Assembly: GCA_963823665.1 (NCBI GenBank)
Contig: CAWGMQ010000003.1
Coordinates: forward strand, 1,120,001-1,184,000
Direction of reading: 5' to 3'
From: an uncultured Planctomycetota bacterium
GTDB taxonomy: Bacteria > Planctomycetota > Planctomycetia > Isosphaerales > Isosphaeraceae
Length of the DNA stretch: 64,000 nt
A program made the translations under genes and the position numbers. Shown piece after piece: positions 37,711 to 60,120 of this stretch. Under the pieces are notes generated by a model. That model was not told where the DNA came from and searched no databases. It worked only from the letters and a program-made list of their open reading frames with translations. Each line of letters begins with the position of its first letter. Position 1 is the stretch's first letter.

Positions 37711-37716
37711 CGGCGG

Positions 37717-38856: not shown

Positions 38857-38872
38857 GCGCGGACGCGTCTCC

Positions 38873-39418: not shown

Positions 39419-39923
39419 GACATCATTCTCCGGGCCTACAGGTCGTACGATTGGCGATGACTGCTGTTCCAGATATTATACAGCGAGTTGACTCGGCATT
39501 CAGCCTCGTCGCCGCGATTGTGCGTTGAGCCGCGAACGTGTCCGAACGGAAGGTTCCGAGCTTCGGTGGACACCATAATGATCTGCACTCCGCCTGGCCC
39601 CGGGCCGCATCATGACCATCACCCTTCTTGAGTCCTTCGCATTGCCAATTGGCGCGGGCGAGAGTGGACTCGGGTTCCCGGGCACACCATGCCGACCTCC
39701 AACTTCGCCTGGCTCCAGGCCGCGCCATGGCGATCATCCTAGACCGGCGGGACAGCCAATCGGCACCGCCGAGAGTCGGCCCGAAGAGGTCCCGATCGCC
39801 GGGCTGCGATTCGAGAAGTAGGGCCGCAGGGCGTGGTTCGCGAAGGTCGACGCGGGCGAGCCCTGCTGGCTTTCACGGACTGGCGAACAACGAATCCGGC
39901 CGTGATTCGCCTCGAGCAACGAA

Positions 39924-39993
39924 TACCGAAGGTGGGACTTGGACCCACACCCCCATTACAGGGACCGGATTTTGAGTCCGGCGCGTCTGCCAT
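39924..39993 (-). pseudogene. tRNA-Leu(CAA) 3' fragment #1 (att-like site)
   Basis: ATGGCAGACGCGCCGGACTCAAAATCCGGT, long variable arm, GGGTCCAAGTCCCACCTTCGGTA; no 5' acceptor or 5' D-stem strand. Confidence 0.88.
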
Positions 39994-40139
39994 CTGCCTG
40001 ACGTTGGGCTGATGTTGATTTGACGTTGATTTCTGGGATTTTGCCGGGGTCTACGTTAGCCCGCGGCCGTCGATCGCATTGTAGTCGCGTTGGGCCGACA
40101 TGCGCAATGTATGCAGAAGAATTGCAGAAAACCCGCACC

Positions 40140-40375
40140 GTCCGCTTGTTTCGCGATGGCCAGGCCGCGATCTCAGCCGAGTTGTCGGGCATCATCGATC
40201 GACTGGGTAGTAGTGCCGAAAGTTGGTGGTCGCGGATCGAGAAGCTGAGCAACGAGCGCCTGCTCGGCTGCTTCTTTGCGGCGAGGCGGGAACGCTTGCG
40301 CGAGGCGGCGCGTGGCCTCGGCGTTCATCATCTGGCAAACCTAGGCGGATGTCCGGCACGACAGAGCGCAGCCGA
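40140..40375 (+). pseudogene. Probable C-terminal remnant of a Planctomycete transposase (RAYT/Y1-like)
   Basis: RLFRDGQAAISAEL..DRLG..RERLREAARGLGVHHLANLGGCPA; no N-terminus; assignment from recall only. Confidence 0.4.
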
Positions 40376-43300
40376 TCATTCGGGGCTGATCTTTTTTCCG
40401 CCCGCCGAGATGCTGAAAACGTGATTGCCCGAAAGCACAGCGCCCGATAGGCCGGTGACGCCTGCGGGAGATCCACCGACCACGGTAATCTGGCCTCCGG
40501 TCCGCAAGGTCTGCTTGCCGGCAAACTTCAGTGTGACCGAGTCGTTCGCTGCGCTGTACTTGACCGAAAAACTCGTGATCGGGTGAAGAATGTGCCGGGT
40601 CTGCTTCTTGACCCGCTTGGTGGTGATGGACTCGACTTGATAATCGTCGGGGTTTGCCGCATCCGAGGAACTGAGCGCCGCACTGAAGTCGAACACGAAT
40701 CCGCTCAAGACCGCCTTTCCGATTGGCTTGCCTTTCTTGTTGGTTTTGCGGTGGAAGATCGCTTGTTCGCCGATGATCATAAGCGGGTTAGGAGGTGGTG
40801 TCGTCGCGCTCACGTTGAGGGTGCCGCTGGCGCTATTGCCCGCGTAGGTCGACTCACCGGCGAAACTGGCACCCACACGCCCGAGTAAATGCCGGCATTG
40901 AGGCCGGCCAGGCTCACGCCCGAGAGCGTCGCGACCCCGTTCGTGCCGGTCGTCGCCGTGCCGACGGTCGTGACCGTCCCATCCTCGTTCAGGGTGAAAG
41001 CGATCGTCTTGCCGGCGAGCGGCGAGCCGTTCGCGGTCAGCGTGCACGTCAATGTTGCAGTGCCGCCCAAGGTTCCGCTGCCGGAGACGGCCGAAAGGTT
41101 CGTGGCCTGGCCCACGGAGCTGAAATAGCTGAACTGGTACGACGACGAGGTGGGCGACGTCCCGGCGGGCGTCACCACGGTCACGTCCACCGTGCCGGTA
41201 CCAGCGGGGCTCGCGAGCGTGATCTCGGTGGCCGTATCGTTCGTGAATGTGTGGACCTGCATCGACCCGAAATCGACGGCCGATGCGCCGGCCAAGTTGG
41301 TGCCTGTGATCGTGACCGTTGTGCCACCGGTGGTCGGTCCAGTCGCCGGAGCAATCCCTGTCACAGCCGGCGGCCCGGTCGCGGCGACATAGCTGAACTG
41401 GTAGGCCGATGAGGTGGGCGACGTGCCGGCCGGCGTCATCACGGTCACGTCCACGGTGCCGGTACCAGCGGGGCTCGAAAGCGTGATCTCGGTGGCCGTA
41501 TCGTTCGTGAATGTGTGGACCTGAATCGAGCCGAAATTGACGGCCGAGGCGCCGGCCAGGTTGGTGCCCGTGATCGTCACCGTTGTGCCACCGGTGGTCG
41601 GTCCTGTCGCCGGTGCAACCCCTGTTACAGTCGGAGGCCCGGTCATGGTGACATAGCTGAACTGGTAGGCAGATGAGATGGGCGACGTACCCTCAGGCGT
41701 CACCACGGTCACGTCCACCACGCCGGTACCAGGCGGGCTCGTGAGCGTGATCTCGGTGGCCGTATCGCTCGTGAATGCGTGGACCTGCATCGAGCCGAAA
41801 TTGACGGCCGAGGCGCCGGTGAGGTTGGTGCCTGTTATCGTCACCGTCGTGCCGCCCGTGCTTGGTCCCGTCGCCGGTGCGAGCCCTGTCACAGCCGGAG
41901 GCCCGATCGCGGCGACATAGCTGAACTCGTAGGCCGACGAGGCGGCCGATGTACCGTCCGGCGTCATCACGGTCACGTCAACCGTCCCACTACCAGCGGG
42001 GCTCGCGAGCGTGATCTCGGTGGCTGTATCGCTGGAAAAGGTGTTGACCTGCATCGACCCGAAATTGACGGCCGAAACGCCGGCCAAGTTGTTGCCTGTA
42101 ATCGTCACCGTTGTGCCACCGGTGGTCGGTCCTGTTGCCGGTGAAACGCCAGTCACAGCCGGAGGCCCGGTCGCGGTGACATAGCTGAACTGGTCGGCCG
42201 ACGACATGACCGAGACACCGGCCGGTGTCACGACGGTCACGTCCACCATGCCCGTACCACCGGGGCTTGGGACCGTGATCGTGGTACTATTGACCACCGT
42301 GACGCCCGTCGCCTGCATCATGCCGAAGTCGACCACCGTACCGTCGGTGAATCCGGTACCGGTGATCGTCACCGTTGTGCCGCCCGGGGCCGGTCCCGTT
42401 GACGGGCTGACGCCCGTGACGACCGGCAGCACCGCGGTGAGCACGACCGCCTCGCCGCCGTCGGCTTGATAAGAAATGGCGAACTGGCTGCCGTCGGCCG
42501 CCGTGACCACGCTGCCCTGGGGCAAGCCGTTGAAGACGCCAGTGACGCCGCTCCCGCTTTGCACGATCGTGAAGGTGGTGCCCGCGGCGATCGCGGTGCT
42601 TGGAACGACCTGAAGTATCGCATCGTTCAGGTCGATCGATCCACTGACCACGAGCTGCGAATAAGTGCCGGCCGTGATTCCGTCGCCCGGTGTGGTCCCA
42701 TTGATCGAAACGCCCAGCGTGCTGCCCGAGGGCAGAGTGAACGCGCTGGCCGTGACGCCCAGCAGGGTGACCGACCCGCGGCTGTTGTTGGTCTTGTCGG
42801 TGCTCTGTTCGAGGTCGAGCACCAGCGACCCCGAGCCGGTGTCGAGTGTGGCGCCCGAGGTCATCGTGATGTCGGCGTCTCCGGGGTCGCGCTCGCTGTT
42901 GACGACGCCGTCGGCGACGGAGTCGTTGGCGATAAGCGATAGGTTTCCATTCGCGGTGTTGATACCCGCATTGATTAAGATGCTGCGGCCAGTCTCCAGA
43001 GTCAGGTTGCCGGGGGTGCTGGTGGGTGTCACGGTGATCGGGCTGTCGATCGTGATGTCGTCGTTGGACTGGATCGTGACGTTGGTTCCGGCGTTCAGGT
43101 CGCGGGTCAGGAAGCTCGGGGCGACGGTGATGGTCTGGCCCTCGCCGAGCGCGTAGGTCAGCTCGTTCGGGTCGGTAATGGCAACCGTGGCGCCGGCAAT
43201 GAACGAATTCCCTGACGAAAGGGGCTGAATGGCTGCGCCCAGGAAACCGCCGGTGAATGTGTTTTGGGGGTCGGGCGTTTTCTGGCCGTCGATGGACGCG

Positions 43301-46300
43301 CCGTTGGAACCATCGAACCACGTGTTGACGTCTAGGTTGCCAGGGGCGTCCCAGAACACGTAATTACCGTTGGGAAGGACGACGACTCCGGCGGCGCCGG
43401 TGTACATCACGAGGGGGATGTCGGTGAAGCTGTTTGCGCTCGAGGCGGTGCCAAGCGTCTCTGTGGTCCCGTTGAACCACGTCACCGCTCCCGTGCTCTG
43501 GTTCCACAACGGACTGATCACGACGTAATCGCCGTTGGCGAGCGCGGTGATTCCTCCGACGATTTCGGGCCCGTCCTCGTTCACGGTGCCGCCGCCGATC
43601 TCGTCCCCGGCAGTTGGACCCACGCTCGCTGTGCTGCCGACGAAGCTGTTCGCGCTGGAGACGGAGCCGTCAACCCCCGCAGTGCCGTCACCCCAAGTCA
43701 CGGCCCCTGCCTGGAAGCCCCATTGCGGACTGTCGACGACGTAATTGCCGTTGGAAAGCGCAGTCACACCTTGGCTGCCCACGCTGTCAGCGAAGTACGT
43801 GCCAACCAGGCTGTTGGCGGCTGAGACGGTGCCTACGGACCCCGTCGTTCCGTTTCCCCAGGTCACCGCCCCTGTGTCACTACTCCACCCCGGGCTGTCG
43901 ACGACGTAGTTGCCGTTCGTCAGTGCCGTGATGCCACCGCCGCTGATCGAATCGCTCAAGAGGTCTACTTTGTTTTGCGGATTGCTCCCGACCAGGCTAT
44001 TGGTGCTGGAAACCGTGCCCCTGGTTCCTGTCGTGCCGTTGCCCCAGGTTGCCGCTCCAATATCGCTGTTCCAATCGGGGCTGGCCACGACGTAGTTGCC
44101 GTTGGGCAGGGCCGTGATACCGCCGCCGCCCACCTGATCGCTCTGGTTGGAGCCTACCACGCTGTTGGCAGCGGAGACGACGCCGACGGTTCCTGTCGTC
44201 CCATTCCCCCAGGTCACCGCTCCCGCGCTGAAAATGATCGGTTCCGTGCCGACATTCCATTCGGGGCTGTCCACGACATAGTTGCCATTGGTAAGGGCCG
44301 TGACGCCGCCGTTGACTCCGGAGCCAACGGCGCCGCCGACGGGGCTGCTGGTGCCCACCAGGCTGTTGGTGGCGGAGATGGTGCCGACGACACCTGTTGT
44401 CCCGCTCCCCCACGTCGCCGCACCGGCACCGTTGTTCCAGTTCGGGCTGACCACGACGTAATTGCCGTTCGTGAGAGCGGTGACCTGATACCCGACATCG
44501 TCTTCCTCGTTGGTGCCCACGAGGCTATTGACAGCGGAGACGACGCCAGTGACGCCCGCCGTGCCGCTGCCCCAGGCCGCCATGCCCGTGCCGTCATTCG
44601 AGTCGACGTCGGATACGACGTAATTACCGTCCTCGAGAGGCGTCACCTTTTCGTCATCGCCGGTATCGTCGAACTCGATGAGGCTGTTGGCCGGCGAGAT
44701 CGTGCCAGCACTACCGGTCGTCCCGTTTCCCCACGTCACCGCGCCCTCCAAGTTGCTCCAGTCCGGGCTGGAAACGACGTAATTGCCGTTAGCCAGAGCC
44801 GTGACGCCGCCAGTGCCCACGCGGTCGTAAGCGTTGCTGCCGATCAAGCAGTTGGCGGCTGAGGCGGTGCCGGTGGTTCCTGTCGTCCCGTTCCCCCACG
44901 CCACTCCCCCGGCTCCGACATCCCAGTATGGGTCATCCACGACGTAGTTGCCGTTCGTGAGGGGAGTGATCGGGATCGCGCCGGGTTGTCCTCCGGGAAA
45001 GACAAAACTGTTGGCGGCCGATACGGTGCCGCTGACGCCAGTTATCCCGCTCCCCCAGGTCGCCGAGCCGGTGCCGGTCGCCACGAAATTGCCGTTGGTC
45101 AAGAGAGTGACCGTGGAGGCCCCATCGAGAACACTAATCAGAGCCCCGGTCTCACCGTTGTAGAGCGAGACCGTGTTCGCAAACGGGTCGGCACCGACGA
45201 TGTTGCCGGTGCTGAGCGTGAAGAATTGGTCGTCTGAGCCCGAGAGGTTGAACTGCGGAAACACGCCGTTGGTGGCGCTGACGACCAGTGCGCCCGGCGT
45301 CGTGTTGACCGTCAACGTGGCCGGCGCCGTGGTCGCGGTACCGGACGAGTTGGTGAAAACGGCGCGGTATTCATCGCCGTTCTCGGCCGCGGTGGTGTTG
45401 AACGTCAACGTAGTGGATGTGGCACCGGCAACATTACTGAACGTGGTACCCGCGTCGGTGCTGACCTGCCACTGGACGGTCGGGGACGGCGTGCCTGCGC
45501 CAGAGGCCACGAACGTTACGGGGTTTCCGGCGCTTACGACCTGACTTACGGGGTTGGTCGTTACCTCGACGTAGTTGCCGGCCACGACGGTGAGGGTTCC
45601 TGAGCCGCTGCTGCCGGAATACACCGTGTTGCCGGCGTAGCTGGCGCTCACGAAATTCGCGAACGTGCCAACGTGAAAGCCGGCAAGGGCCACAGTGCTC
45701 AAGACAGCGGTTCCGCTTGCGTTGGTCACCGAGCTGCCCACGGTCGTCGGGTTGCCGTTCTCAATCAACGTGAACTTGAGCGTCTGCCCTGCAAGACTCA
45801 CGCCGCCGGTGGTCAGGCTCGCCGTCAGGGTGCCGGCGCTGCCGGAGGTCCCCTCGCCCGAGACGGCCGAGACGGTTGTCCCCAAGAGAACGATGGTTCC
45901 GATCGTGATGGTCGCTGGGTCCTCAGTGCTGCTTGGCGCGAAATCAGGATCGTCGGGGGTGTAATCAGCGCTGATGGCATGCATCCCGAGTGAGAGCATT
46001 GCGTCTCTCGTCGTCGCCGCGCCGTCGACGAGCGCAACCGGGTCGCCGTATGGATCGCCATCAACGGAGAACTGGATCGTGCCGGTCGGAGTTGCCGGAC
46101 TTGCACTTTGGCTGGTGTTGGCCACCGTGGCTGTAAACGTGACACTTTGACCGAGGCCCGCGACAACTCCGGGTTGGGTGGTGACGGTGGTGGCAGTCGC
46201 GTCGGCCTGCACGACAAGAGTCGCAGGTTCCTGAGAGCTGCTCGGCGCGAAGTCTGGGCTGTCCGGCGTGTAGGCAGCCGTGATCGAATGCGACCCCACG

Positions 46301-47319
46301 GGAAGATCTGCGTCATCGATGGTGGCCATGCCATCGTCCAGGTCCGCCTGAGCGCCATACGAATTGCCATCGACGAAAAATTGCACCGTCCCGGTCGGGG
46401 CCGGCGGATTCGTGTCGCCGCTGATGTCGTCCACCGCGGCCTCGAAGGTCACGTCCTGACCGAAGTCCGCGTCGCTGTCCGGGGTCGTAGTAACGGTAGT
46501 GGACGTCGGGTCCGGTGGCGCAATGCTCGCGTCCAGATTGGCATCAACGAGCCACCCAGCGTTACTGATGCCGGCGGGGGCTGGAGGCGCTGGCGTTTGG
46601 CCGGCGAGGTTCTCCGAGAACGTGAGCGTGAACGTGTCGCCGATCCGAGCATGGAGCGTCCCCATCTCGTTGTCCGTGGGTCCCGGCCCGACCGGTCTGA
46701 TGATCCCGATGCCGCCCAGTTGGTCCGTCTTGGATGCCAGCGATGTGGTGACGCCGTTATACGTGTAGCTCGCCGAGTACGTGAAGCTGGCCGTCGCGTT
46801 GTTGGACGCGAACGTCTCCACGTTGAAGGAGAAGGCGAATTCCACGTTGACCGCGGCGCCAGCCCGCTCACCGGGATTCGTGGCGACGATCGTGATGGGA
46901 ACGGCGGCGCCGATATTACCGTTCGTGTCGGCCAGGCCCGTGTTCACCGCGACGCTCGCGATGCCGTTTTTGGGCACGCTTCCCTGGGACAGAATGTCGA
47001 GGTTGACACCCGGATTGTCCGTGGTCGACGCTGCGCTCGTCAGCGTGACGTTTGATACCGCCGTGCCGTCGTTATGCGAGAACTTTTGAGTAGCCGGCGT
47101 GTTCAGATTGGACAGCTCATTCTCGGCTTGGACGACCGAATCGAGCGTCGACTGCTCGGCGAGCGCACCCGAGAATTGCAGCGTCGCAAGCAGCGTCCGA
47201 TCTTCCAGCGATTCGATGCGGGGCACTCGCGTGCGACGGAACCGCGCCGAGCAACCCGCGGTCTGGTTCCGATGCATGCGGCCCCTGCCCGTGTGATGTG
47301 CAAAAGTCTTCATCGACAT
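40376..47319 (-). CDS. Giant secreted adhesin-like protein (about 2300 aa): LEPRxLL signal, Ig-like domains, DUF5650-like repeats, 5 IPT/TIG domains, basic C-terminal domain; frameshift near 40880
   Basis: IESLEDRTLLA; TGTVQF.VDG Ig-like units; VTALTNGNYVV.SP.W..GAVTWG repeats; P.VTG..P.TGP..GGTTVTITG units. Confidence 0.88.
41120..42430 (-). repeat. Intragenic 264-bp (88 aa) IPT/TIG tandem repeat x5
   Basis: ATAGCTGAAC anchor at 41125, 41389, 41653, 41917, 42181. Confidence 0.92.
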
Positions 47320-47859
47320 GACCGCACCTCGTGGTGAAGCGCTCAGCGGGTCTCACGGCTGCGACGAAAGGCGGAAAGCTCGGTGCGAGAGCGCACCGCG
47401 AGCGCGAACTCAGCATCTCTCGACAAAGAGACGTTCGTTCGCCGGAAAACTCACGCGAGGTTCGGAAAACTCTCTTTATCGACCTGCAGACGCGCTAGAA
47501 AAGCCGTCCGGCCATCTCGGCCCGATTGAACGCCAAAACAGGCCAAGGAGCGAATCGCCGCTTCCAGCACCGGACATTGTTGCCGTTCTAAGGTGTCGGC
47601 CAAGACAACAACAGTTCATGGTACAACATGCCACTCGATCACGGCAACACGCTGGTTCTGGATTTTGGCGACTGGCCAAGGCGTATGCGGTGGGTGATGT
47701 AGGGGCCGACGATCACGCGGTATGCCCCCTCGCTCATCCCTTCTGCGAACAGCAGGGCATGCAATGTAAGATCGAAACGTCGCACCGACTTGGAGTCTTC
47801 TTTCGTAGGATCTCTGCGCGGGGCGTGCGTCCGCGATCGCCCGACGGAGGCGGCTCCTA

Positions 47860-48269
47860 GTGCGCCTGTAATTGCAGCGAATCAGCAGGGTGAAAGTCCT
47901 TGCGGAGGTGTTCTGGCGCTTCGTAACCGACGGTAACTGCGTCGCCGTGAGGCGGGGTGGAGAGCAACCCGAGGTGAACCATCAGTCCGTAACGCAAGTA
48001 AACTCGATTCGGCCGATCGTCGTGGCGAGCCTGCTAGGAAATGGCGAAGCCCAATTGACGCTTGGTCCTGAAAGGGACGGCCATGGATACATGGTCCGGT
48101 AAGCCTGGCATTGAAAAACCCAGAAATGTGCCGGGACGAGGACGGGTGGTTGGAGACGGAATGATCGGAAGATTCGTTGACGAGAAGCAGGGAGACCTGG
48201 GCGGTACCAAGCCGGTGTTCATGCTCGTAGAGCCAAAGAGCCGACCGCCCAGGAGTCAAAGCATCCGTA
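47860..48269 (+). ncRNA. Group II intron 5' remnant (domains I to about III; no RT ORF, no domain V/VI)
   Basis: Starts GTGCG; GGGTGAAAGTCC hairpin; GGTAAC..CCGTGAGG; CAGGGAGACC at end of DI; GGAGTCAAAGCATCCGTAG DIII-like start. Confidence 0.7.
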
Positions 48270-48359
48270 GTGTCTGCTGGGCAGTGTTTTGATCCGGAGG
48301 GTTCAAGTCCCTCGGCAGCCCGGATGAGGGGCGGCATATCCAAAGGCGCGGGTAACGCC

Positions 48360-49948
48360 CAATGGCACTAAGCTTCTACGCAATCAGTTTGCTGGGCAAC
48401 TGTTTTCTCCCATGGCCGAGGTCTTTCACTTTGGTGTCCTTGGGGCGGGGATAATGACGCCCTGGGCGTAGCGGCACGCTGTGCTTAGCGATTCGGCGGA
48501 GCAGTCGCGGTAACAGTATGGTACCGACGCGCTCCGGCGAGGCAGTCACCAGCGTCTGAACCATGTCTTGGATTTCCCTCAGAGCCTCGGTGAAGCTCAG
48601 CCTCAACGGGTCCAACCCGCGCTCCGCCGCGGCTTCGACCATCAGCCAGCGAACCATCAGGTACAACAGGAGATGGCTGCCAATCTCGTAATAGATAGTC
48701 CCTGGCGTGCGCCCTCTCAGGTTCTTCAGCCGCTGGCTGATTTTGAGCTCGCGAAAGCTGGTTTCGATTTCCCATCGGCGATGGTAGATTGCGTTATCCA
48801 GCACGCACCCTGCCTGGTGTTTGGTCGTCATGCCGATCCATTCCGCGTACGAAATCACGTTGGGATCCGTCGCGTTGGTGATTACGGCGCTGGGGCGAAA
48901 ACCACGCACTTGGTAGGCGATGCGCCGGAGCACCATTTCTTCCGGCAGGCCAAGCCTGCGCCACTTCTTGTCTTTGGGCGCAGCGAACAAGGGTGTCCTT
49001 CGGCCCCAAGCTCCGCATGCGTTTCAAGTGTGCCTGGGAAATCTCACGGATCGCGAAGAACGCCCCCTGCTGCACGATGCGGCAGAAAAGCCCGTAACTC
49101 CAAAACCCACGATCCATCAGCAGCAAGTCGTCCTTGTGCAAATGATCCATCAACTGTTCGGCCATTGTTTTCTCGGCTACGCTTTTGGGACCGACGACGA
49201 AGCGGTAGGGGACGCGTGTCAGCGGAAACTGAAGCATCACCATCCGGGCCTGGGGAATGCGACCTCCGCGGCCACCTTTAGCGGCGCCGAAATGCTTGGC
49301 TAACGCCTCATAGCGGGGCAGGTTGTTGAGGGTTCCGTCGAGGGCGATCAAACGGAAGTGCTTCCAACGAATCATGTCATCGCGCTCTTTCGCGAAGCGG
49401 TCAGCCAGAAGCAGCGACAAGGTAATCCAAAAATCCAAAGGCATGCGGGCGCGAGCTTGGACGAAAGCCTCCTCGCTGACTTGAATCGGCTTATCCCCCT
49501 TGGGGTGATGTTTCGACGGCTGCTTTTTGGTTGCCTTTCGAGCAAGCCGTCGTCCATTCCGGCCGGGAAGGTGGGGCAGCTCCAACTCGGGATCGAGATT
49601 GCCCAGGGGCGAGTTGGGGGCATCGGTAAGAATCTTGAAAGTAACAACAAGCGTGTCGGCAAAGCTCTTGGTTCCATCCAAAGCGTAAGACACGCCCAGC
49701 CAGACAAGATGCCTCAAGTTCAGAGGATTGGAAGTGACACGTCGCTGACACATGCGTGCAGCCTCACTGAAGAGGCGCGGCGTCAGGAACCGGGAAAAGG
49801 CTCGAATGCCCCGCGACTGAACTTGCTCCCAAACGCGACATCGTGCATCATCCTTGAACATCGTGGTCCTCCTGACCAAAAACGGTTTGTCACAAGCGTT
49901 TTATGCCAGGAGGACCGCGATCCTTTCAATACAAGCTTAGTGCCATTG
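48360..49948 (-). mobile_element. IS4-family insertion sequence (1589 bp)
   Basis: 16-bp TIR CAATGGCACTAAGCTT; 10-bp TSD GGGTAACGCC (48350-48359 and 49949-49958). Confidence 0.93.
48376..49861 (-). CDS. IS4-family DDE transposase; frameshift near 48985
   Basis: LIALDGT, LMDRGF, YHRRWEIETSFRELK (YREK). Confidence 0.9.
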
Positions 49949-50181
49949 GGGTAACGCCTCGCTGGCTGGGGAACGTGACCAAGGCGAACCCTAAACGGGC
50001 ACGAAGTTGTGCGTGGGCAAGATAATCGAGACGGACAACCCCGACGGCCACGCACTTCACACGGGAATTCTGGGAAGCCTGGGCAACCGAAGGATCGAAA
50101 TGAGTTTCGAACCAGCAGCCCAGTCGACGTAAACCGCGTAGTCAGAGGTGCCTGGCCGACTGAGCCGGCCGACTGAGCCGG

Positions 50182-50312
50182 CCCACCAAATCGCGGCCGA
50201 CGCCACCGTGGCTTGGGCTGCCAAACTCTCCGTCGGGTGGGTGCAACCCACCAGGATCGCGGCCGACGTCACCGTGGCTTGGGCTGCCGGACTTTTCGTA
50301 GGGTGGGTGCAA
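50182..50312. repeat. Tandem units of about 66 bp containing GTAG-type REP GT(A/C)GGGTGGGTGCAACCCACC
   Basis: Two near-identical units; last REP interrupted by the IS and completed at 51860-51875. Confidence 0.8.
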
Positions 50313-51859
50313 CTACCCCTGTGAACATGCAGATGCGAAATTAGCTAAACTGTGATTCTACTATGCTTTGATCCCTTTGTTCCCGCGGCAGGGGCTCCGC
50401 GGGACTTGTCCAGGAGCTTCTTGGTGGCAACGTGATGAATCCTGCTCCCGGAAGTCTTTTTGGTCTTCCTGGGCTTCTTCGGGCCCCGTCGCGATCGGAG
50501 CATCCGGTCCACGGGCACCTTGGCGGCCAAGGCGCTGAGCAGTCCGGCCACTTCGCCCGCCACGCAGCCGTCCAGAAACGACCAAACCGACGGTGGTGCG
50601 GCAATCATCATCCCGGGGTAAACCTCGGCGATGTCATTGACCAGGGCGTGATTCGACACCTCATTGACCATCTCGTCGCCGTGGACCGCTCGCAGATTCC
50701 CCTTCAAGACGGCCAAGCCGTTTCCGGCAATTACAGACATGGAGAAGCCGAACAGAGCTGCTCGAGGGTATCCCAGCGTGGGGATTTCGCAATGCAGAAG
50801 GTCGGTCAACTTCTGGAAGTGCTTCTCAATTTCCCATCGTCCGCAGTAGGCCTGGCAGCACAACTCCGCCGAGGCCGTGTCCGGGAGGTTAGTTATCAAG
50901 ATGATCTCGGTCTCCCCGTCGCGGGTGGGTTGGTCCAACCTCAAGACGATCCGTCGCAGGCGATAGCGACGCCCCTCGCATTCCGGATCATCGACCCAGA
51001 TTGCTTGCTCAAGAATCTCGCCGGCCTTGCAGCGTCCGACCGACCGCAACGGCTTGATCGCCTGGAACGGCATGGTGGAAGAATGCCAGCGGACCAAGAA
51101 GAACGCTTCGGTTCGCAGGATCCGAAACACGAAGCTCCGGACGCAGAAGTTACGATCCATGATCCAGAGCTGGCCCGGCGCGATGACCACCTGATCCAGC
51201 AGCGAGCGCTCCTGGGTGTGGGCGTTCTCCTCAAGGATGAGGTCGAGCACCAGGCCACTGACCGGCTCGTAAATGGCCAGCGACATGCCCGGCAGGGCCG
51301 CCGAACGAGTCGAGCGCAGTTCATTGATGCGATGATCGGTCCCTGTCAGGATATTGCCGTCGAGGATCCTTGCTGTATATCCCGGGATCGGCTCGGGCAG
51401 GAGGCAATCAGCAGCGGAGATGAGTTCGCGGGCTCGACTGGCGGTCTCTCGTACGATGGCGGCGGCTACGCCAGGTTCCATCCGACCCAGCTTGCGGTAG
51501 AAAGCGGACAGCGAAGCCACGAGGTGCAGTTGGCGCTTCAGGAATGCCTCCCGCGGGGAGCGCCGAAAGCCGCAGGCGACATCACACATCACCTGAACGA
51601 AATGACCGAGCAAAAATTCTCGCGTGTATTGTCCCTCGGACACCTCATCAAGAATGGGGTCAATCGAAGTGCGTTCGATCATCCAATCCAGGGCGATCCG
51701 GGCCATGACCGCCGGAGCTGCCTCCTCCGCGAATGGGTCGAGTTTGGATGGGAGAACCATTGGACCTCCTTGTCCGGACGAATTGATCCAGCGCGAACCT
51801 ACCAATCCTTTTCGGCAAAAGAGGTTATGACAATTAAATCTGCATGTTCACAGGGGTAG
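50313..51859 (-). mobile_element. IS4-family insertion sequence (1547 bp) inserted in a REP
   Basis: 22-bp perfect TIR CTACCCCTGTGAACATGCAGAT; 10-bp TSD GTGGGTGCAA (50303-50312 and 51860-51869). Confidence 0.93.
50345..51760 (-). CDS. IS4-family DDE transposase
   Basis: RILDGN, IMDRNF, YCGRWEIEKHF; GGAGG RBS. Confidence 0.9.
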   Translation of the reverse strand: MVLPSKLDPFAEEAAPAVMARIALDWMIERTSIDPILDEVSEGQYTREFLLGHFVQVMCDVACGFRRSPREAFLKRQLHLVASLSAFYRKLGRMEPGVAAAIVRETASRARELISAADCLLPEPIPGYTARILDGNILTGTDHRINELRSTRSAALPGMSLAIYEPVSGLVLDLILEENAHTQERSLLDQVVIAPGQLWIMDRNFCVRSFVFRILRTEAFFLVRWHSSTMPFQAIKPLRSVGRCKAGEILEQAIWVDDPECEGRRYRLRRIVLRLDQPTRDGETEIILITNLPDTASAELCCQAYCGRWEIEKHFQKLTDLLHCEIPTLGYPRAALFGFSMSVIAGNGLAVLKGNLRAVHGDEMVNEVSNHALVNDIAEVYPGMMIAAPPSVWSFLDGCVAGEVAGLLSALAAKVPVDRMLRSRRGPKKPRKTKKTSGSRIHHVATKKLLDKSRGAPAAGTKGSKHSRITV

Positions 51860-52063
51860 GTGGGTGCAACCCACCAGGAATGCGCCCGGCCTGACCTTCC
51901 GACCGAAAGTCTGCGCCTCAGATTCAAGCGCTGAACGTCCTCGGCTTGACCGGAGTCATCATCCAGATCCGACTCATCTCCGATGGCGCGACATCCGTGC
52001 AGGTGCCCTGGCGAGAGTTGGTAGTGGAGAAGAAATCGTAGCCGTGCGCGAGGCTCGATCGTG

Positions 52064-52131
52064 TCCCGAAGACTGGACTTGAACCACACCCTTTTGCGAG
52101 GACCGGATTTTGAGTCCGGCGCGTCTGCCAT
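52064..52131 (-). pseudogene. tRNA-Leu(CAA) 3' fragment #2 (att-like site)
   Basis: Same 5' breakpoint (ATGGCAGAC); CAA anticodon arm intact; T-arm degenerate. Confidence 0.85.
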
Positions 52132-52431
52132 CAGCGTGGCATTGGAAACAGGTTGGGCTGATAGTTAAATTACTCGTGTGGCAAGCGGTTACGTCACACT
52201 TTTCTGCCAGCAGCTTTGCAGCCACGTTGGGCTGACATTGCCAATGTTGTTGCCAAATTGTTGCCAAATTGTCCAGGTTCCGGCTAGGCAAGGGTGCTCG
52301 CACTCCCCAAACGCGAGCAACAGCATGGCACTTTCTCCTCGAATCGACGGGGCTTGACCTTGGATGTGCCAGCCCTGTCGAAGCCCCGCGGGTTTCATTA
52401 TCATCGAACTAGAGCGGTGAAGGAGAAAGCC

Positions 52432-53157
52432 ATGTCCAAGTATCAATCCGCGGCAGGGTTCCCGACCACTCACTGGAGTTGCGTTCTTCGCGCTGGCCAT
52501 CCGACCGATCGGGAAGGCCGAGACGCACTAGAGCGACTGTGCCGCGATTACTGGTATCCGCTCTATGCCTTCGCCCGTCGTCAGGGGCTCGATCGAGAGG
52601 AGGCCGGCGACCTCGTTCAGGGGTTTCTGGCGGACCTGCTTGAGCGTGGCGACCTGACGAAAGCCGACCCCGCTCGTGGCCGGTTCCGCTCGTTTCTCCG
52701 AACCGCCTGTAGCCACTTCCTGTCCCACGCCCGCGATCATGACCGCGCTCTTAAGCGAGGAGGAGGCCGTACTCCGGTCTCGATCGACCTGCACGACGCC
52801 GAAGGACGTTACATCAACGAACCGGCCCACGACCTGACGGCCGAACGCCTCTTTGAGCGGCGCTGGGCTATGGTCCTGCTCAGACATGCCCTGGCTCGCC
52901 TGGAATCAGAGGCAAGCCGCGGAGGCAAGTCTGATCTATTCCACCACCTGCGACCCATGCTGGAGGGAAATGACGTGGTGGATTCCTACAAAGAAATCGG
53001 CGAAACGCTGCAAATGAGCGAGGGTTCCGTCAAGCTCGCCGCTCACCGCTTCCGAGGTCGGTACCGGCAAATCCTTCGAGAAGAGGTCGCCCGGACCGTC
53101 GCCGATCCGGCTGAGATCGATGCGGAGATCGCCGATCTCTTGCGGGCGTTGTCGTGA
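52432..53157 (+). CDS. ECF sigma factor (STK-associated, FPTTHWS type)
   Basis: FPTTHWS, YWYPLYAF, DLVQGF, GRFRSFL, region 4 HTH; directly upstream of a kinase. Confidence 0.93.
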   Translation: MSKYQSAAGFPTTHWSCVLRAGHPTDREGRDALERLCRDYWYPLYAFARRQGLDREEAGDLVQGFLADLLERGDLTKADPARGRFRSFLRTACSHFLSHARDHDRALKRGGGRTPVSIDLHDAEGRYINEPAHDLTAERLFERRWAMVLLRHALARLESEASRGGKSDLFHHLRPMLEGNDVVDSYKEIGETLQMSEGSVKLAAHRFRGRYRQILREEVARTVADPAEIDAEIADLLRALS

Positions 53158-53252
53158 TTCCGACACCCACTGAAGAATTCGCTGTAACCTTCCGCAATTC
53201 GTCCGTCATGAGAATGTAGTGGGATCGTGGTCCGCTTCTGGGAGGCTGGGTC

Positions 53253-56200
53253 ATGAGTGATCGTGAGAACTGCCGGGTTTGCGGAGAGAAGCGGCCGGCG
53301 GATGCGCCTTCGGGGCTCTGTCCGGCTTGTTTGCTGAAGGCGGGGCTCCTGGGCGAGGGCTCCCGCTTGCCGGATGTGACGATCACGTTCGGGCCGGCCT
53401 CGTCGAGCGTCCTGGCCTCTTTCGGGGAAGCCTTCGGAAAGATCCCGCCGGTTCTGCTCCGGGATGCCGACTCAGTCACCGATCCTGGCCCGGTGATCCA
53501 ACCGTCATCCTCCGAAATCCCCGACCCCGCCGACCGTTCAGCGCGCTTGCAACTCTTCGGCGAGATCGCTCGCGGCGGCATGGGGGCCGTGCTCAAGGGC
53601 CGTGATTCCGACCTCGGTCGCGACCTCGCGGTGAAGATCCTGCTCGAATCCCATCGCGACAAGCCCGAGATGATCCGCCGGTTCATCGAGGAAGCGCAGA
53701 TCGCGGGCCAGTTGCAGCATCCGGGGATCGTGCCGATCTACGAGCTGGGAGCCTTCGGCGACCGCCGCCCCTATTTCGCCATGAAGCTGGTCAAGGGCCA
53801 CACTCTTGCGGAAATCCTCGCGAATCGAAAGTCAGCCGGCGACGGCTTCCCGCGCCTGCTTTCGATCTTTGAATCCATCTGCCAGACCATGGCCTACGCC
53901 CACGCCCGAGGCGTGATCCACCGCGATTTGAAACCGACCAACGTGATGGTCGGATCCTTCGGCGAGGTCCAGGTGATGGATTGGGGCCTGGCCAAGGTGC
54001 TGCCTCGCGGCGGAGCGGTCGAGGATGCCTCGGCCGGTCATACGAAGGACCAGGGGACGGTCATTGCCACGGCACGTAGTGACTCGGATTCGGATCTTTC
54101 CCAAGCGGGCTCAATCATGGGGACGCCGTCGTACATGGCCCCCGAGCAGGCTCGTGGCGAAGGTAATCAGGTCGACGAGCGCGCCGACGTGTTCGCACTC
54201 GGCTCGATCCTCTGTGAACTTCTGACTGGTCAGCCCGCTTTCACCGGCCGATCCTCCGGCGAGATTCAGCGCAAGGCCGCACGGGGGGATTTGAGTGACG
54301 CCGTCTCGCGTGTGCAAGCCTCCCGCGACGACCCCGACCTGATCGCGCTGACCGAGGCGTGCCTTTCGCCCGAGCGCGACGACCGTCCCCGCCATGCGGG
54401 TGAGGTTGCCGAGCGGATCGATGCCTATCGGACGGGTGTCCAGGAGCGAATGCGCCAGGCCGAACTCGCCCGCGCCGAGGAAACAGCGCGAGCGGAGGAG
54501 GCGACCAAGCGGGCGCGCGTCGAGCGCGATCGGCTGCGGCTGGCGCTGGCGCTGGCGGCCTCGATTCTTGTGCTGGTGGTTCTCGGCGGCGGTGGGGGCT
54601 TTTGGTTTTATCGACAGCGCCAGGCCCGCTTGTCGAGCGTCGAGGCCGTGCTCGTACGGGTGCAGACTCTCCGTGAGCAGGCCCAAAGCCGCGGCGCAGA
54701 TCCCTTGCCATGGCGCGAGGCGCTCGCCGCGGCCGAGCAGGCCCTCGCGTCGATCGGCGATCTGGCCGCGACGGTGCCCGGCCGTCGCCTGTCCGCGCTT
54801 CGCGACACAATCGCCGAGGACGAGAAGCGGGCCAAGCGCGAAACCACTTTCATGGCCGACCTGGCGGATGTTCGCTCAAAGCGCGGTCTGAAAACAATGG
54901 ACGCGGAGAAAGGCTACCCCAAGGCGTTTCGACGCTACGGACTTGACCTGACGACCACGCCCGTCGAGCAAGCCATCACTCGTCTAAAAACGCTCCCCGA
55001 GGCGCTTCGCCACGAGGTCGTGACGTTTCTTGATGACTGGGCCTTCGCGCGCGGCGGCACCGAAAACGAGACCGCCGGCCCGCTGGCGCTGGCGCGGGGG
55101 CTCGATCCCGATCCCGAGCGCAACCGCCTCCGCTCTCTCCTGGAAAACAAGGACCTGAAGGCGGATGCCGACGCCTTGTCCGGCATGGCGAAGCGACCGA
55201 ATCTGATCGAGTCCGGGCCGTCCACGGCCCTGCTCCTGGCCTCGGCGCTGGAACGGGTCGATCATAAGGACGCGGCAATTGGCGTGCTCCGCGCCACGGT
55301 GGTGCGATACCCCGGCGACCTCTGGGTGAACAGTGAGCTGGCTCATCGCTTGAACGAGATGGAGCCACCACAGTCTGCGGAGGCGATCCGTTACTACTCG
55401 ATTGTTCGCGCCCTGCGGCCTAGTTCGGGGCGCGAACTCGCGGACCTCTTGCGAGATGAAAATAGAGCTTCCGAGGCGGAAGCGATCCGTCGCGAATTGA
55501 CCAAATTACAGCCAGACGATCCAAGAACATGGAGCGAGCTGATCGAACTTCTCAAGACCCGACGTAACGCCGAGGGGATCCGCGAGATCGGCAATCAGTG
55601 GGTCGACTGGGTTCGCGAACAGATCAAGCGCGCACCCAATGAGGCTGCCCCTCACCTGAAAGCCGCTTGCGTCTACCACGTGTTGAATGACAGACCGAAC
55701 CAGATCGCCGAGCTCAAGGAAGCGGCTCGTCTCACCGAGAAAGGTCGCCTCGCGATCGACCACCTTCTCGGCCACGTGCTTTTTTTCGAGGACGACTTGA
55801 AAGGCGTGGCCAACGCCTATCGTGAGGCCCTGCGAGTCGACCCCACGGATCTCAATTGTGTTTACGAACTCGCCTTCAGCCTCTGCCTTTCGGGTGACCA
55901 TAAGGGAGAAGTGCAAGCTCTCCGCGAAGCTGTTCGACAGAAATCCGTGGCTGCCCAGCGAGTGGAGGCGTATTTCTCCGATGTAGAATCCTACACAGAA
56001 TTTTTCGATGATGATTTCTCTATTGCATCTAACTATATGATATTATATTTACACACATATGACCAAGGATATCAAGCTCTAGGCTGCGCGCTGGCGGAAA
56101 CAGGGGATCTTGCCGGCGCGATAGCTGCTTGCCGTGAAGCGATTCGGCGCGACGAGCGCGGCGCGATGATCCATACTGATTTCAGTAGTTCATGCACATT

Positions 56201-57086
56201 CAGCGGCAGCAATGACATTGAAACTCCCTACAGTTTCCCAGTCCTTTCCATCCTTATGAACGACGACCCTTCGAAGCTGATCCCCGAACTCCATGAGGCG
56301 ATCCGGCTCAAACCCAAACTCGCGGCGACTCAGGTCGGATTCCATCTTGCCGTTGCTCTTGGTCGTTCGGGCAACGTCACAGGCGCGATCTCCACGATTC
56401 GGAAAGCAATTGAGCAAGGGCCACAGGTCAGATTGGACACTCTCCATCTCATCTGGCCGATCGCTCTGATAGACCAAAAGAAGGATTTGATCGCGATCTT
56501 GCGCCAACTCCGCGAAGGAGCCAAAGAAGACAAAGCCATTGTTGTATGGATCGATCGCGCGATTCTTCTCACCGAGCGGCTCATGGCGATGGGCTCACGG
56601 CTCGCGAAGGTCTTCCACGGAGGAGGCCGCGGCGATGTTTATTCGAGGATGTGCCGAATTCGGCGGCTCTACGCCCTGGACGCTGCACTCTGGTCCGTGG
56701 CCTTCGACGTGGAACCAGCTCTGCTCGAGGATCGCTTAGGTTGGTATCGCTACTCCGCTGCCTGTTCCGCCGCGCTGGCGGGATGTGGAAAGGGAAAGGA
56801 TCAGCCTCCGCCCGCCGACGCTGAGCGCGCCAAGCTTCGTGGCCAAGCCCTCACATGGCTCCGCGCCGAGTTTTCGGCCAAAGCCAAGGTCCGAGAAACC
56901 GGTACGCCCGGAGCCACCAAGGATCTGCACGGGACACTTCAACACTGGCGAGAAGACCCCGACCTCTCCGGCGTTCGCGACCCCGAAGCCTTGGCCAAGC
57001 TCCCCGAGGCCGAGCGCGCGACTTGGCGGGCGCTCTGGGCGGAGGTCGAGTCCCTGGAGAAGCGGCTCCGAACGACGCCTCCTTGA
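53253..57086 (+). CDS. Serine/threonine protein kinase with N-terminal Zn-ribbon, TM and TPR array (STK3)
   Basis: CRVC..CPAC; IARGGMG, HRDLKPTN, DWGLAK, YMAPE; C-terminal RYSAAC..WLRAE domain like STK1. Confidence 0.95.
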   Translation: MSDRENCRVCGEKRPADAPSGLCPACLLKAGLLGEGSRLPDVTITFGPASSSVLASFGEAFGKIPPVLLRDADSVTDPGPVIQPSSSEIPDPADRSARLQLFGEIARGGMGAVLKGRDSDLGRDLAVKILLESHRDKPEMIRRFIEEAQIAGQLQHPGIVPIYELGAFGDRRPYFAMKLVKGHTLAEILANRKSAGDGFPRLLSIFESICQTMAYAHARGVIHRDLKPTNVMVGSFGEVQVMDWGLAKVLPRGGAVEDASAGHTKDQGTVIATARSDSDSDLSQAGSIMGTPSYMAPEQARGEGNQVDERADVFALGSILCELLTGQPAFTGRSSGEIQRKAARGDLSDAVSRVQASRDDPDLIALTEACLSPERDDRPRHAGEVAERIDAYRTGVQERMRQAELARAEETARAEEATKRARVERDRLRLALALAASILVLVVLGGGGGFWFYRQRQARLSSVEAVLVRVQTLREQAQSRGADPLPWREALAAAEQALASIGDLAATVPGRRLSALRDTIAEDEKRAKRETTFMADLADVRSKRGLKTMDAEKGYPKAFRRYGLDLTTTPVEQAITRLKTLPEALRHEVVTFLDDWAFARGGTENETAGPLALARGLDPDPERNRLRSLLENKDLKADADALSGMAKRPNLIESGPSTALLLASALERVDHKDAAIGVLRATVVRYPGDLWVNSELAHRLNEMEPPQSAEAIRYYSIVRALRPSSGRELADLLRDENRASEAEAIRRELTKLQPDDPRTWSELIELLKTRRNAEGIREIGNQWVDWVREQIKRAPNEAAPHLKAACVYHVLNDRPNQIAELKEAARLTEKGRLAIDHLLGHVLFFEDDLKGVANAYREALRVDPTDLNCVYELAFSLCLSGDHKGEVQALREAVRQKSVAAQRVEAYFSDVESYTEFFDDDFSIASNYMILYLHTYDQGYQALGCALAETGDLAGAIAACREAIRRDERGAMIHTDFSSSCTFSGSNDIETPYSFPVLSILMNDDPSKLIPELHEAIRLKPKLAATQVGFHLAVALGRSGNVTGAISTIRKAIEQGPQVRLDTLHLIWPIALIDQKKDLIAILRQLREGAKEDKAIVVWIDRAILLTERLMAMGSRLAKVFHGGGRGDVYSRMCRIRRLYALDAALWSVAFDVEPALLEDRLGWYRYSAACSAALAGCGKGKDQPPPADAERAKLRGQALTWLRAEFSAKAKVRETGTPGATKDLHGTLQHWREDPDLSGVRDPEALAKLPEAERATWRALWAEVESLEKRLRTTPP

Positions 57087-57376
57087 GCAGTCATTCCCGT
57101 ACGATCCCGCCACCGCTGAATTCGGGGCGGTTACGATGCTGCCCTGATCAACGTACGCCCCAGCGACATCGGTCTATCTCGGGAATTGATAAATTGATAA
57201 GAGAAGCCATGCGGGAGTTCGGGCCCGATGGCTAGGGGCAGCCTCTCTGCTGGCCGCTGCGGCCACAGAATCGCCGGCAGTTCTCACTGAAGCCGACAGA
57301 ACTTGACCGAATCCTGCGCTGCGGACTGGTACTTGCCCGGGTACAATACATCCATCGGAAACCGAGGAGAACCACC

Positions 57377-57583
57377 GTGCCGGAACTGACCTTGGAAAGC
57401 CTGGCCCGCCGCCTCGAAGATGTCGAGCGGCGTCTGAACGAGAAGGAAGCCAGCAGCGCCAAAGATTGGCGTATGGCTGCGGGTATGTTCACCGGACGGG
57501 AGTTTTCGAAAATCGTCGATGAAGAAGGCCGAAAAATACGCGAAGCCGATCGGGATGAGGCGCGCCAGGAATTCGGAGAGTGA
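57377..57583 (+). CDS. Putative antitoxin of the downstream VapC
   Basis: 68-aa ORF with GAGG RBS, overlapping the toxin start (GTGA). Confidence 0.7.
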   Translation: MPELTLESLARRLEDVERRLNEKEASSAKDWRMAAGMFTGREFSKIVDEEGRKIREADRDEARQEFGE

Positions 57584-58005
57584 TCCTTCTGGACACCGAT
57601 CATTTGACGGTTCTCAAGTACACCGACAGCGAGCGCTACGCGCGGCTCCATGGCCGATTGCTCGTTGCGGCCCCGGAACTGATAGGCACCACTATTGTCA
57701 ACGTTGAGGAACAAATGCGGGGCTGGTTGTCCGCAATCGCCAAAGAACGAATACTACTGCGTCAGATCACCGCCTACCGCGAGCTGACAGACCTGTTCGA
57801 TTTTTTCGCCAAGTTCAACATCATTTCTCTGACTGCCGACGCGGTAGACCTGTTCAACGGCTTCCGCAAATCGGGCATCAAAATCGGCACCATGGATCTG
57901 AAGATGGCCTCCATCGCGGTGGCCAATAGCGCACTTTTTCTCACGGCAAATTCGCGAGATTTCGAGAAAGTGCCGGGGCTAAGATCCGAGAATTGGCTCG
58001 AATAG
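57580..58005 (+). CDS. vapC: VapC-family PIN domain toxin
   Basis: MILLDTD, EE, GTMDLKMASIA, TANSRDF. Confidence 0.88.
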   Translation: MILLDTDHLTVLKYTDSERYARLHGRLLVAAPELIGTTIVNVEEQMRGWLSAIAKERILLRQITAYRELTDLFDFFAKFNIISLTADAVDLFNGFRKSGIKIGTMDLKMASIAVANSALFLTANSRDFEKVPGLRSENWLE

Positions 58006-58166
58006 CGAACGCGTGAGCGTCAGGTCAGCCTTATCGTCATTGAAGGACACCATTCTGGCGGAGTGGTGATCCTGTCTCCGCACCTCGGCGATCCGTTTGA
58101 AACGCACCAATGCGGCCGGGGCCGAGCCCACTCGAAGCCGATCACTTAGCATTTTGCACCAAGAAG

Positions 58167-58235
58167 TACAGAAGGTGGGACTTGAACCCACACCCCCTTG
58201 CGGGGACCGGATTTTGAGTCCGGTACGTCTGCCAT
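58167..58235 (-). pseudogene. tRNA-Leu(CAA) 3' fragment #3 (att-like site)
   Basis: ATGGCAGACGTACCGGACTCAAAATCCGGT..GGGTTCAAGTCCCACCTTCTGTA; same 5' breakpoint. Confidence 0.88.
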
Positions 58236-58534
58236 CCGTCCGGTACTGAGCTGATGCCGACTTGACGTAGATTTCGATGATTTCTTAGGGGTTTACGATA
58301 ACCCCGCTGTTCTTCGCATTGTAGCCGCGTCGGCATCACAGGGGGCAACATCTGTGGAAGAATTGCAGAGGATCCTTGATCGGTATTCCTGTTCGGTTTT
58401 CGTGTCTGGCGCCCTCTTCGAGATCCCACAAAGTGACGCTGTGACGGAGATGGACGGTGGCGGTTCCGGGGTAGCCTGCCGATGAAGAGGGTGACGGGGC
58501 GGCGATGAGCGCGCCGGCCGAAACCAAGAGGAAC

Positions 58535-58556
58535 GGTCCGCAGTGGCGGACCCTAC
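58535..58556 (-). repeat. GTAG-type REP (GTAGGGTCCGCCACTGCGGACC)
   Basis: GTAG tetranucleotide plus GGTCCGC/GCGGACC palindrome. Confidence 0.65.
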
Positions 58557-58611
58557 GAGAGACGGGACGCTGCGATGGTGGTTCACTGTGCACGCGGTTT
58601 CCTTCGGGCTC

Positions 58612-59497: not shown

Positions 59498-60120
59498 TGA
59501 AAGCCACGGCGTCGCCGCTGGTGTGGATGGTTGTGGCTTGGCAGGCCATGGACTGGAATGGACGGCATCAACTCAGTCAATAACAACGGGGCGCCGGATC
59601 ATGGGTGGCGAGGAGATGACAAGATGACGGCAGCAGGAATTGACGGGGTGAAAACGTGTGGTGCGGCGGAACGTGCCGGAGACGCCGATGCGGGCCGTTC
59701 GTCGGTCGCTCGGAACAACGGAGAACGCACAATGGCCGACGGCGACGTGCCGCCTCCCGACGCCGGCTATTTACACCAGTGTACGGATGCTGGAAGCCCC
59801 CTCAGAAATTGCCACTTATTGCCATTTTTCGTGGGACTCGACGATTGCTTCCGGCCGGAGCGACTGCTCTGCAAGTTCAATAGGCATCATCGAATAGGAA
59901 CGGAGCGAGGCGTTTTTCGATGATGGCAAAAGCTCATGGCAATGGTCTCTGAAAATTGCCACGGTAAATCCATGAGGTTGTTCACTATGTTTTGGGCCTT
60001 TTTTTCGAGCGACTTCGACCGGAGATCGGCGCTCCTTTGGGGGCGCGGACTTCCCTGCGCGCGACCCCCATCCACCGCCGGCGGCGGCAACTCCCCCGCA
60101 ATGGCACACGGAATGCCGAA

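Follow-up and report, generated by a model that had tools for sequence, protein, structure and literature searches.

Dispersed tRNA-Leu(CAA) fragments as putative attR-type sites bounding integrase-less gene units in a planctomycete genome

Three fragments of a tRNA-Leu(CAA) gene, here called copies A, B and C, divide part of a 64,000-nucleotide stretch of an uncultured Isosphaeraceae genome into stacked gene units. This stretch, hereafter the window, is G000:C3:1120001-1184000, where G000 denotes a 16.46-Mb assembly in 12 contigs (91.9% complete). On our reading, to which we attach a moderate probability, the copies are attR-type sites of a planctomycete tyrosine-integrase family, crossover occurs in the anticodon loop, and the units accrete as cis-mobilizable elements (CIMEs) by way of a helper element that then departs, an activity predicted from sequence.

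The motif ATGGCAGAC occurs three times in the window, always on the minus strand (39985-93, 52123-31 and 58227-35), against 0.49 expected; only 1 of 100 shuffles had at least three occurrences. Compared with the intact tRNA-Leu(CAA) gene of the same genome, copies A, B and C had 0, 0 and 2 mismatches over bases 15-44, and 12, 13 and 8 of 14 bases mismatched over bases 1-14. The match thus begins only at base 15, where all three copies start. A first-pass annotation of this DNA had described three minus-strand copies cut at one D-loop base and spaced by 12.1 and 6.1 kb, and both statements were correct: the copies are co-oriented and separated by 12,138 bp (A-B) and 6,104 bp (B-C). The conserved anticodon arm and divergent 3' parts that it reported were also found, but decay alone does not account for the divergence, since the variable-arm differences are largely alleles of the intact tRNAs of other species. 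The copies and the arms that precede them are as follows.

39924..39993, minus strand: copy A, tRNA-Leu(CAA) fragment, bases 15-83; its variable-arm allele is that of another species' intact tRNA
39994..40130, minus strand: arm A, family m1, conserved element end of ~135 bp; short repeats at -136 are putative integrase arm-binding sites
52064..52131, minus strand: copy B, tRNA-Leu(CAA) fragment with decayed T and acceptor arms
52132..52269, minus strand: arm B, family m2; its repeat type is also that of the termini of the integrase-encoding element, G000:C4:535-574 kb
58167..58235, minus strand: copy C, tRNA-Leu(CAA) fragment and the array's first site (the anchor); ARAGORN and Rfam wrongly label it a tRNA
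58236..58370, minus strand: arm C, family m1; orthologue of the first-site arm in the array of G001, a genome of the same genus (86.6% over 186 bp)

An arm of ~135 bp with short repeats at -135/-136, missed by the first-pass annotation, lies upstream of every copy. Given a conserved integrase arm before each of them, the copies appear to be attR-type sites. The window contains no intact tRNA-Leu, as had been stated. We rejected copy C as a real tRNA because bases 1-14 and the D-arm are missing and it scores 30.6 bits, compared to 60.5 for the intact gene. The stated lack of a tyrosine or serine integrase also held: the 20 PF00589 matches of a genome-wide search all lie outside the window, and a Pfam scan of 30 window open reading frames revealed neither a relaxase nor a serine or tyrosine recombinase, only DDE transposases. 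Separately, a TTG-N18-TA(C/T)AAT pattern oriented toward the fragment was present in 25 of 84 arms, including window positions 40040-40090 and 58280-58330; in a circular element it would point at the integrase gene. An arm promoter serving the next unit was set aside, as a promoter scan of copies A and C was negative and the genes face in both directions.

How common are such sites? G000 has a single intact tRNA-Leu(CAA), at C8:58979-59061, on a different contig from the window. A strict pattern search gave 26 matches, including this gene. An anchor search over fetched stretches gave 29 fragments, to which one degenerate copy can be added; these 30 fragments occupy 15 loci (the intact gene and two TAA-type sites set aside). 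Downstream of the intact gene, the first 100 kb contained none of the 29. The upstream (right) arm was present at 25 of the 29 and the downstream (left) arm at 2, and site-to-site units totaled ~204 kb, or 1.2% of the genome. A parallel arm-plus-fragment set exists for tRNA-Leu(TAA) (G000:C4:2081043 and C4:2591-2605 kb; L105, L096; three co-oriented, one array). At G000:C8:186.0 kb (L034), an arm precedes a mirror site (see below) of the tRNA-Leu(CAG) type, co-oriented with two CAA sites, so that isoacceptors can mix within arrays.

In a census of 121 genomes of the family with the strict pattern, most had one or two matches, and nine had at least five (G072, 30; G000, 26; G068, 17; G069 and G073, 12 each; G001, 9; G012, 7; G021 and G106, 5 each). 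All nine are among the 31 genomes of at least 10 Mb, yet the 16-Mb genome G093 had one match, and kinship and assembly quality confound this relation. For closer analysis we used part of the sites of each of 14 genomes chosen for several matches, together with L107, a Planctomycetaceae record. This set comprises 125 CAA sites, 15 of them intact genes and 110 fragments. With profiles built from the same sites, the right arm was detected at 97 of the 110 fragments (all three in the window) and the left arm at 9 (none of the three). Neighbouring sites within 45 kb were co-oriented in 68 of 69 pairs, and 9 of 33 multi-site clusters started at an intact gene. A site lay within 4 kb of a contig end in 6 of 18 contigs checked (G068:C1, C2 and C3; G069:C13; G072:C6 and C12), which suggests that assemblies break at arrays.

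The first-pass annotation had proposed looking for an intact tRNA-Leu(CAA) and an integrase near the same arms, and G000 has both, the gene at C8 and an integrase at C4. This 445-aa protein (PF00589) is the only full-length integrase of the cognate family in the genome; its gene starts ~140 bp past a fragment, behind m2-type repeats that form the left arm. It heads a 38.9-kb element (G000:C4:535-574 kb) that is bounded at its far end by another fragment and encodes HTH_17, a coupling protein, a TrwC relaxase, ParB, RepA and restriction-modification genes. By its gene content it is a mobilizable element, which we provisionally label an integrative and mobilizable element (IME). The complete element stands within an array, integrated into a fragment far from the tRNA gene. 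Residues R261, K286, H393, H419 and Y428 are invariant among 87 homologues and R396 is nearly so; we assign them catalytic roles by analogy. The structural model (pLDDT 87) has an N-terminal domain of three strands plus a helix, aligns to lambda Int over its full length and matches the folds of lambda Int and Tn1549 Int, so modelled, the N terminus is a lambda-like arm-binding domain. Against the integron-integrase profile TIGR02249 the protein scored 39.5 bits (cut-off, 265).

A homologue with 84% identity follows an intact tRNA-Leu(CAA) in L107, and another, with 58%, bears the name Singulisphaera acidiphila; the two point to a planctomycete, probably of the Isosphaeraceae, as the source of G000. 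Relatives adjoin intact tRNA-Leu genes with the CAA (L107), TAA, CAG and GAG anticodons, and arm repeats were found on both sides at every integrase-bearing end examined. An intact tRNA gene (tDNA) at one end with an integrase inside is not seen in the window; L107 has this arrangement, and G002 and G052 have it with an integrase stub. A 365-aa recombinase at C4:499 kb was set aside as the cognate integrase: it starts ~490 bp past a site, lacks a left arm and has a SAM-like N terminus. We take it to be RIT-like.

Several observations bear on where in the tRNA the integrase acts. Bases 22-26 were of the host type in 14 of 15 intact genes compared to 39 of 110 fragments, a contrast to which selection on the intact gene contributes and in which kin are not independent. 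Where arrays start at an intact gene, the variable-arm class differed between the gene and the first fragment in 5 of 9, which argues for exchange 5' of base 45. In 23 of the 110 fragments, tRNA similarity was lost 1-12 bases past the loop. Nine of these tail-less sites are symmetrical about the loop: on the right, 6-8 of the 8 outer positions repeat the left half-site (TGGCAGANGNNCCGGA) in mirror image (chance, ~0.0005 for at least 7). The mirror sites fall into two unrelated flank families, both recurring in four metagenome contigs; one is found where a reading frame ends and hence looks like a secondary target. The CAG-type site is likewise a mirror about the loop. In two tail-only sites, tRNA similarity starts at the anticodon stem and is preceded by non-tRNA DNA. 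On these sequences, the most likely position of the crossover is from base 26 to base 45, with the anticodon loop in the middle. The dyad, as judged from the same alignments, is on that loop, and the D-loop start is the outer edge of a long half-site, a layout that also explains how one integrase family targets four Leu isoacceptors. A D-loop-proximal crossover, which the first-pass annotation had thought possible, was rejected on the allele contrast at bases 22-26 and on the tail-only sites that start at the anticodon stem.

We then asked whether the DNA between sites behaves as a unit. The 67 units from site to site have a median length of 6,284 bp. No trace of an integrase was seen in 59; 6 retain a stub and 2 the full gene, in one case at tRNA-Leu(TAA). 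The stubs argue that units descend from ordinary islands, and the window units retain the arm only, possibly as a residue of a parent IME or integrative and conjugative element (ICE). The doubt raised in advance, that each segment might be an ordinary island with a deleted integrase, thus applies in part, given the stub in 6 of 67 units. The clearest case of movement is an integrase-less unit with a sigma factor and a kinase, whose whole length (4,594/4,609 bp) is 96% identical between G001 and G068, genomes of different genera; for comparison, G000 and G068 are 80% identical in the response-regulator gene. Neighbouring DNA differs at both ends, and the unit sits at the anchor site in G001. 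At its entry, identity runs from base 27, behind unrelated arms (the switch falls at bases 26-27), and at its exit, identity ends after the tail. This was the only full-length cross-genus match among the 67 units; a second pair was 95% identical over most of its length. The left arm is present in 1 family of left ends (9 sites) and missing from 17 others, the five largest of which occur at 4-8 sites in 3-5 genera, with different upstream DNA each time. These data support the earlier proposal that the fragments bound stacked, integrase-less units, and indicate that these move as units.

The locus of the array gave a second view of turnover. The relevant features are listed below.

13988..15389, minus strand: left core flank, comprising panC and a gene for a 2Fe-2S ferredoxin-like protein
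15500..61343, no strand: flexible region of ~46 kb holding the array, missing at the locus in other genera
58371..61340, no strand: decayed DNA upstream of the anchor site, with tandem repeats; a segment recurs in G000 and 314 bp are common with G001; no integrase or tRNA
61359..61880, plus strand: response-regulator gene forming the right core flank; 17 of 18 empty loci have it 203-453 bp from the ferredoxin-like gene

In G001, synteny is kept on both flanks (identity, 83-87%), and the gap at the locus contains seven sites spaced by 0.9-5.8 kb with cargo that differs from that of G000. Within the array, orthology was confined to the first site's arm (arm C); the two genomes have the anchor site in common and none of the site-to-site units behind it. 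The exact-ended cross-genus unit, together with the other cargo in G001, indicates that sites are reused. We compared 28 best-match loci of other genomes. In 18 of them the response-regulator gene and the left-flank genes of the window were no more than 1.5 kb apart; the other 10 were left aside, several having matched a neighbouring paralogous regulator gene. None of the 18 loci had a match to the tRNA, the arm profile or the tail profile. The array therefore lies within a 46-kb insertion at a place without a tRNA gene in relatives. A search for arm or tail remnants of the outer ends of this region found none except a weak match at 57117-57175 (E 0.016). Clustered GC-rich repeats of 47-59 bp occupy positions 60489-60805 in the decayed DNA, and to the left of the locus (9834-13228) a TPR-sulfotransferase gene is duplicated in tandem with a period of ~1.9 kb, a single G001 region aligning to both copies.

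The explanation that we prefer for these patterns is the following. Each site is made up of the right arm of an element and, behind it, a half-site extending to the D-loop, the anticodon loop and the tRNA tail. As an attR keeps the whole core, it remains a target without the tRNA gene, as the complete element integrated in a fragment shows. An integrase-bearing element would insert at the site ahead of a resident unit; element and unit would be excised jointly via the element's left arm and the unit's right arm; the composite would be transferred and integrate at any such site; and the helper would then be excised alone, leaving the unit precisely inserted. Because the helper supplies the left arm, units would need a right arm only. 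Arrays away from tRNA genes may have been seeded by composites at secondary sites or carried in larger flexible segments, and homologous recombination between the repeats probably adds shuffling. The last site of an array was tail-less in 11 of 33 cases, against 7 of 58 elsewhere (p 0.026), an enrichment that secondary-site integration predicts.

Other data fit this explanation poorly. Bases 22-26 agreed in 19-30% of same-arm pairs, against a background of 21-23%, and the variable arm agreed in only 20-31% of same-downstream pairs. The exit of the 96% unit has one tail type in both genomes, which a single loop crossover does not predict, and mirror sites may have a fold-back origin. Arms A and C are of the m1 family, but the sole full integrase of G000 has m2 ends. 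Homologues of window cargo at 86-88% were found in relatives with no site nearby, so window genes travel by other routes too. Contigs from soil runs on 39600-59500 were short, uninformative pieces and included no site joint, circle or junction read. Finally, three isolated sites in G000 lie midway in 14-kb strain-specific segments, and their G001 counterparts have no site, which implies that carriage inside larger segments also occurs. These three sites are not the ends of the strain-specific regions around them.

Could the integrase act on the units in trans, with no helper in cis? In a one-armed system of this kind, which we consider rather unlikely, the integrase alone would move units using the right arm and two cores, and the ~30 sites would form an integron-like network. 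Left arms were found at only 9 of 110 fragments, yet arm-less left ends recur across genera with new neighbours; arm-less units lie directly at intact tRNA genes in G045, G048, G049, G065 and G069; and the newest-looking unit of G001 adjoins the anchor site. The modelled lambda-like arm-binding domain and the arm repeats on both sides of integrase-bearing ends speak against such a system, however, and cis delivery by a helper predicts identical products. The integrase is also not of the integron class, and first downstream genes were 45 sense and 56 antisense (101 scored sites, rough gene calls). The analogy to integrons made by the first-pass annotation fails on these last two points. In keeping with that annotation, the recombinase is elsewhere in the genome; strict action in trans is one possible reading, the same data being explained by cis delivery from a departing helper. 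A domesticated, tRNA-independent version, with one helper integrase acting in trans on dozens of one-armed chromosomal sites and units swapped across genera, seems to us similarly doubtful.

RecA-type exchange between the 70-bp tRNA repeats and 135-bp arms, the integrase having merely made the sites, could account for the mosaic alleles inside fragments, for the at least 5 of 16 pairs in which one downstream flank goes with differing types of variable arm, and for the exit junction of the 96% unit, which diverges only past the tRNA 3' end. The repeats are short and diverged, however, mirror and tail-only sites require a sequence-specific loop crossover, and the entry junction of the same unit switches between unrelated arms at bases 26-27; we judge this explanation unlikely. 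That the sites are static scars out of use, left by ordinary tRNA islands that lost their integrase and were scattered by rearrangement, would agree with the stubs in 6 of 67 units, the isolated sites inside larger flexible segments and a recorded separation of fragment and gene by inversion (PMC9897764, accessible portion), but is very unlikely given the complete element integrated in a fragment far from the tRNA gene, the anchor that G000 and G001 share with no common units behind it, and the 96%-identical unit at that anchor in G001.

Under the preferred explanation, accretion at attR-type sites with a departing helper, the window holds two complete units and the left end of a third.

37561..39993, minus strand: left end of the unit after copy A; near-identical at G000:C10:1147-1150 kb, where the arm and upstream gene differ
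39994..52131, minus strand: unit A-B, 12.1 kb, no integrase trace
40810-47319: 2169-aa Ig/TIG/DUF5650 repeat protein in unit A-B
48376-49879 and 50345-51805: DDE transposase genes in unit A-B; the second has two near-identical copies elsewhere in G000
52132..58235, minus strand: unit B-C, 6.1 kb, no integrase trace
52294-53157: sigma-factor-like gene in unit B-C (weak Pfam matches)
53253-57086: Ser/Thr kinase-TPR gene in unit B-C
57580-58005: VapC-like gene in unit B-C (below cut-off)

Copy A and the 2.4 kb behind it were thus found again at C10, behind another arm. Pfam supports the earlier description of the cargo as signalling and surface genes. Among the candidates scored in 61 and 41 genomes (4 and 7 candidates per genome), none was an exact homologue of either whole window unit. 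No match was found in viral contigs, and the only match in a plasmid was of tRNA length. A kinase was present in 7 of 15 G000 units (3.5-4.9 expected); strong kinase enrichment was therefore dropped in favour of a modest one.

Further observations concern individual genes and sites. The proteins encoded at 33888-37550 and 40810-47319 are large and probably secreted, and their genes contain tandem repeats with periods of 249 and 264 bp. G000 has 542 candidate protein-kinase domains, and all 150 that were scored exceeded the cut-off. Four kinase paralogues of 87-90% identity lie at G000:C6:341-358 kb and C10:1150-1155 kb, three in tandem over two units and the fourth in another array. At G008:C13:106118-108776 (L065), a transposase pair splits a fragment tail, the remainder of which lies with a left arm 2.6 kb further on. 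G049 has two apparently intact tRNA-Leu(CAA) genes (C40:12667 and C51:129751), one with variant D-arm bases, and a unit follows each. L093:11057-15607 and L094:5564-9043 contain m1-armed tail-less sites, each beside the start of a related large gene; the two genes have an N-terminal motif in common, one has many TPRs, and we presume a possible link to defence.

These results imply that a tRNA fragment, once displaced, can remain an integration hotspot even when it no longer adjoins the tRNA gene. Such arrays would escape island finders that look for an integrase together with an intact tDNA, and some of the sites are mislabelled by tRNA callers. The units also offer one testable route by which sigma-factor/Ser-Thr-kinase pairs could pass between genera of Planctomycetota. 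The growth of kinase families in this phylum has been ascribed to within-lineage duplication or recombination (PMC11032199, in the portion available). The scale is modest, and site-to-site units do not account for a 16-Mb genome. If the trans network were true, large-genome soil planctomycetes would swap sigma-factor/kinase and surface-protein units through an integron analogue made from tRNA scars. Our literature search, which covered few subscription journals and no supplements, found no such arrays described in Planctomycetota, nor any gene-detached arrays that occupy many loci and whose right-arm-only units recur in different genera.

As far as the accessible portions of the cited papers go, the closest known systems include the CIMEs. 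These comprise integrase-less cargo of 1.2-13 kb between att sites, stacked by tandem accretion with an IME as the likely helper, and a survey listed 37 composites of 2-3 elements each, at the target gene and with attL and attR kept (PMC5704250, PMC7563491). The units described here are similar in size (median, 6.3 kb), att-bounded and tandem, lack integration and transfer genes and keep attR. They differ in reaching up to 7 sites per array, in occupying 15 off-gene loci in one genome and in mostly missing the left arm. Location at the target gene, usual in the described cases but outside the quoted definition, does not apply, and attL here is a core with a tRNA tail and no left arm, which would suffice if the helper supplied that arm. 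The tDNA islands of Islander (PMC4383910) likewise have a displaced 3' tRNA fragment, a tyrosine integrase and, in 2083 of 3919 islands, an anticodon-loop crossover (site A), to which the crossover placed here by sequence corresponds. Islander accepts only members with an integrase of their own and an intact tDNA no more than 200 kb away, and lists 4 tandems of at least three in 2168 genomes; the window array would fail its criteria. A D-loop sublocation, proposed in Klebsiella (bioRxiv 10.1101/2020.11.02.365908, accessible part), is unneeded here.

In Dehalococcoides, 15 ssrA islands without integration modules were proposed as CIMEs (PMC3146451). These resemble our arrays in having many fragments per genome and an expanded paralogue family as cargo, but their repeats are 20 bp long, all lie within 100 kb downstream of ssrA and are served by a serine recombinase, unlike the system in the window. 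Prochlorococcus tycheposons (bioRxiv 10.1101/2020.12.28.424599) show repeated tRNA integration, scattered partial tRNAs and older elements pushed outward; they carry their own integrase, however, and their islands usually abut the tRNA gene. Integrons also have arrays of recombinase-less units between recombination sites, with a possible parallel in polar entry at the first site, and differ in integrase class, in the arm-plus-core (not attC-like) sites, the multi-kb, multi-gene units and their mixed orientation found here, and in that no integrase is adjacent. Integrase-less stacks at a target gene are therefore already known from CIMEs, Dehalococcoides ssrA islands and tycheposon islands; what differs here is detachment from the gene, dispersal throughout the genome and right-arm-only units shared across genera.

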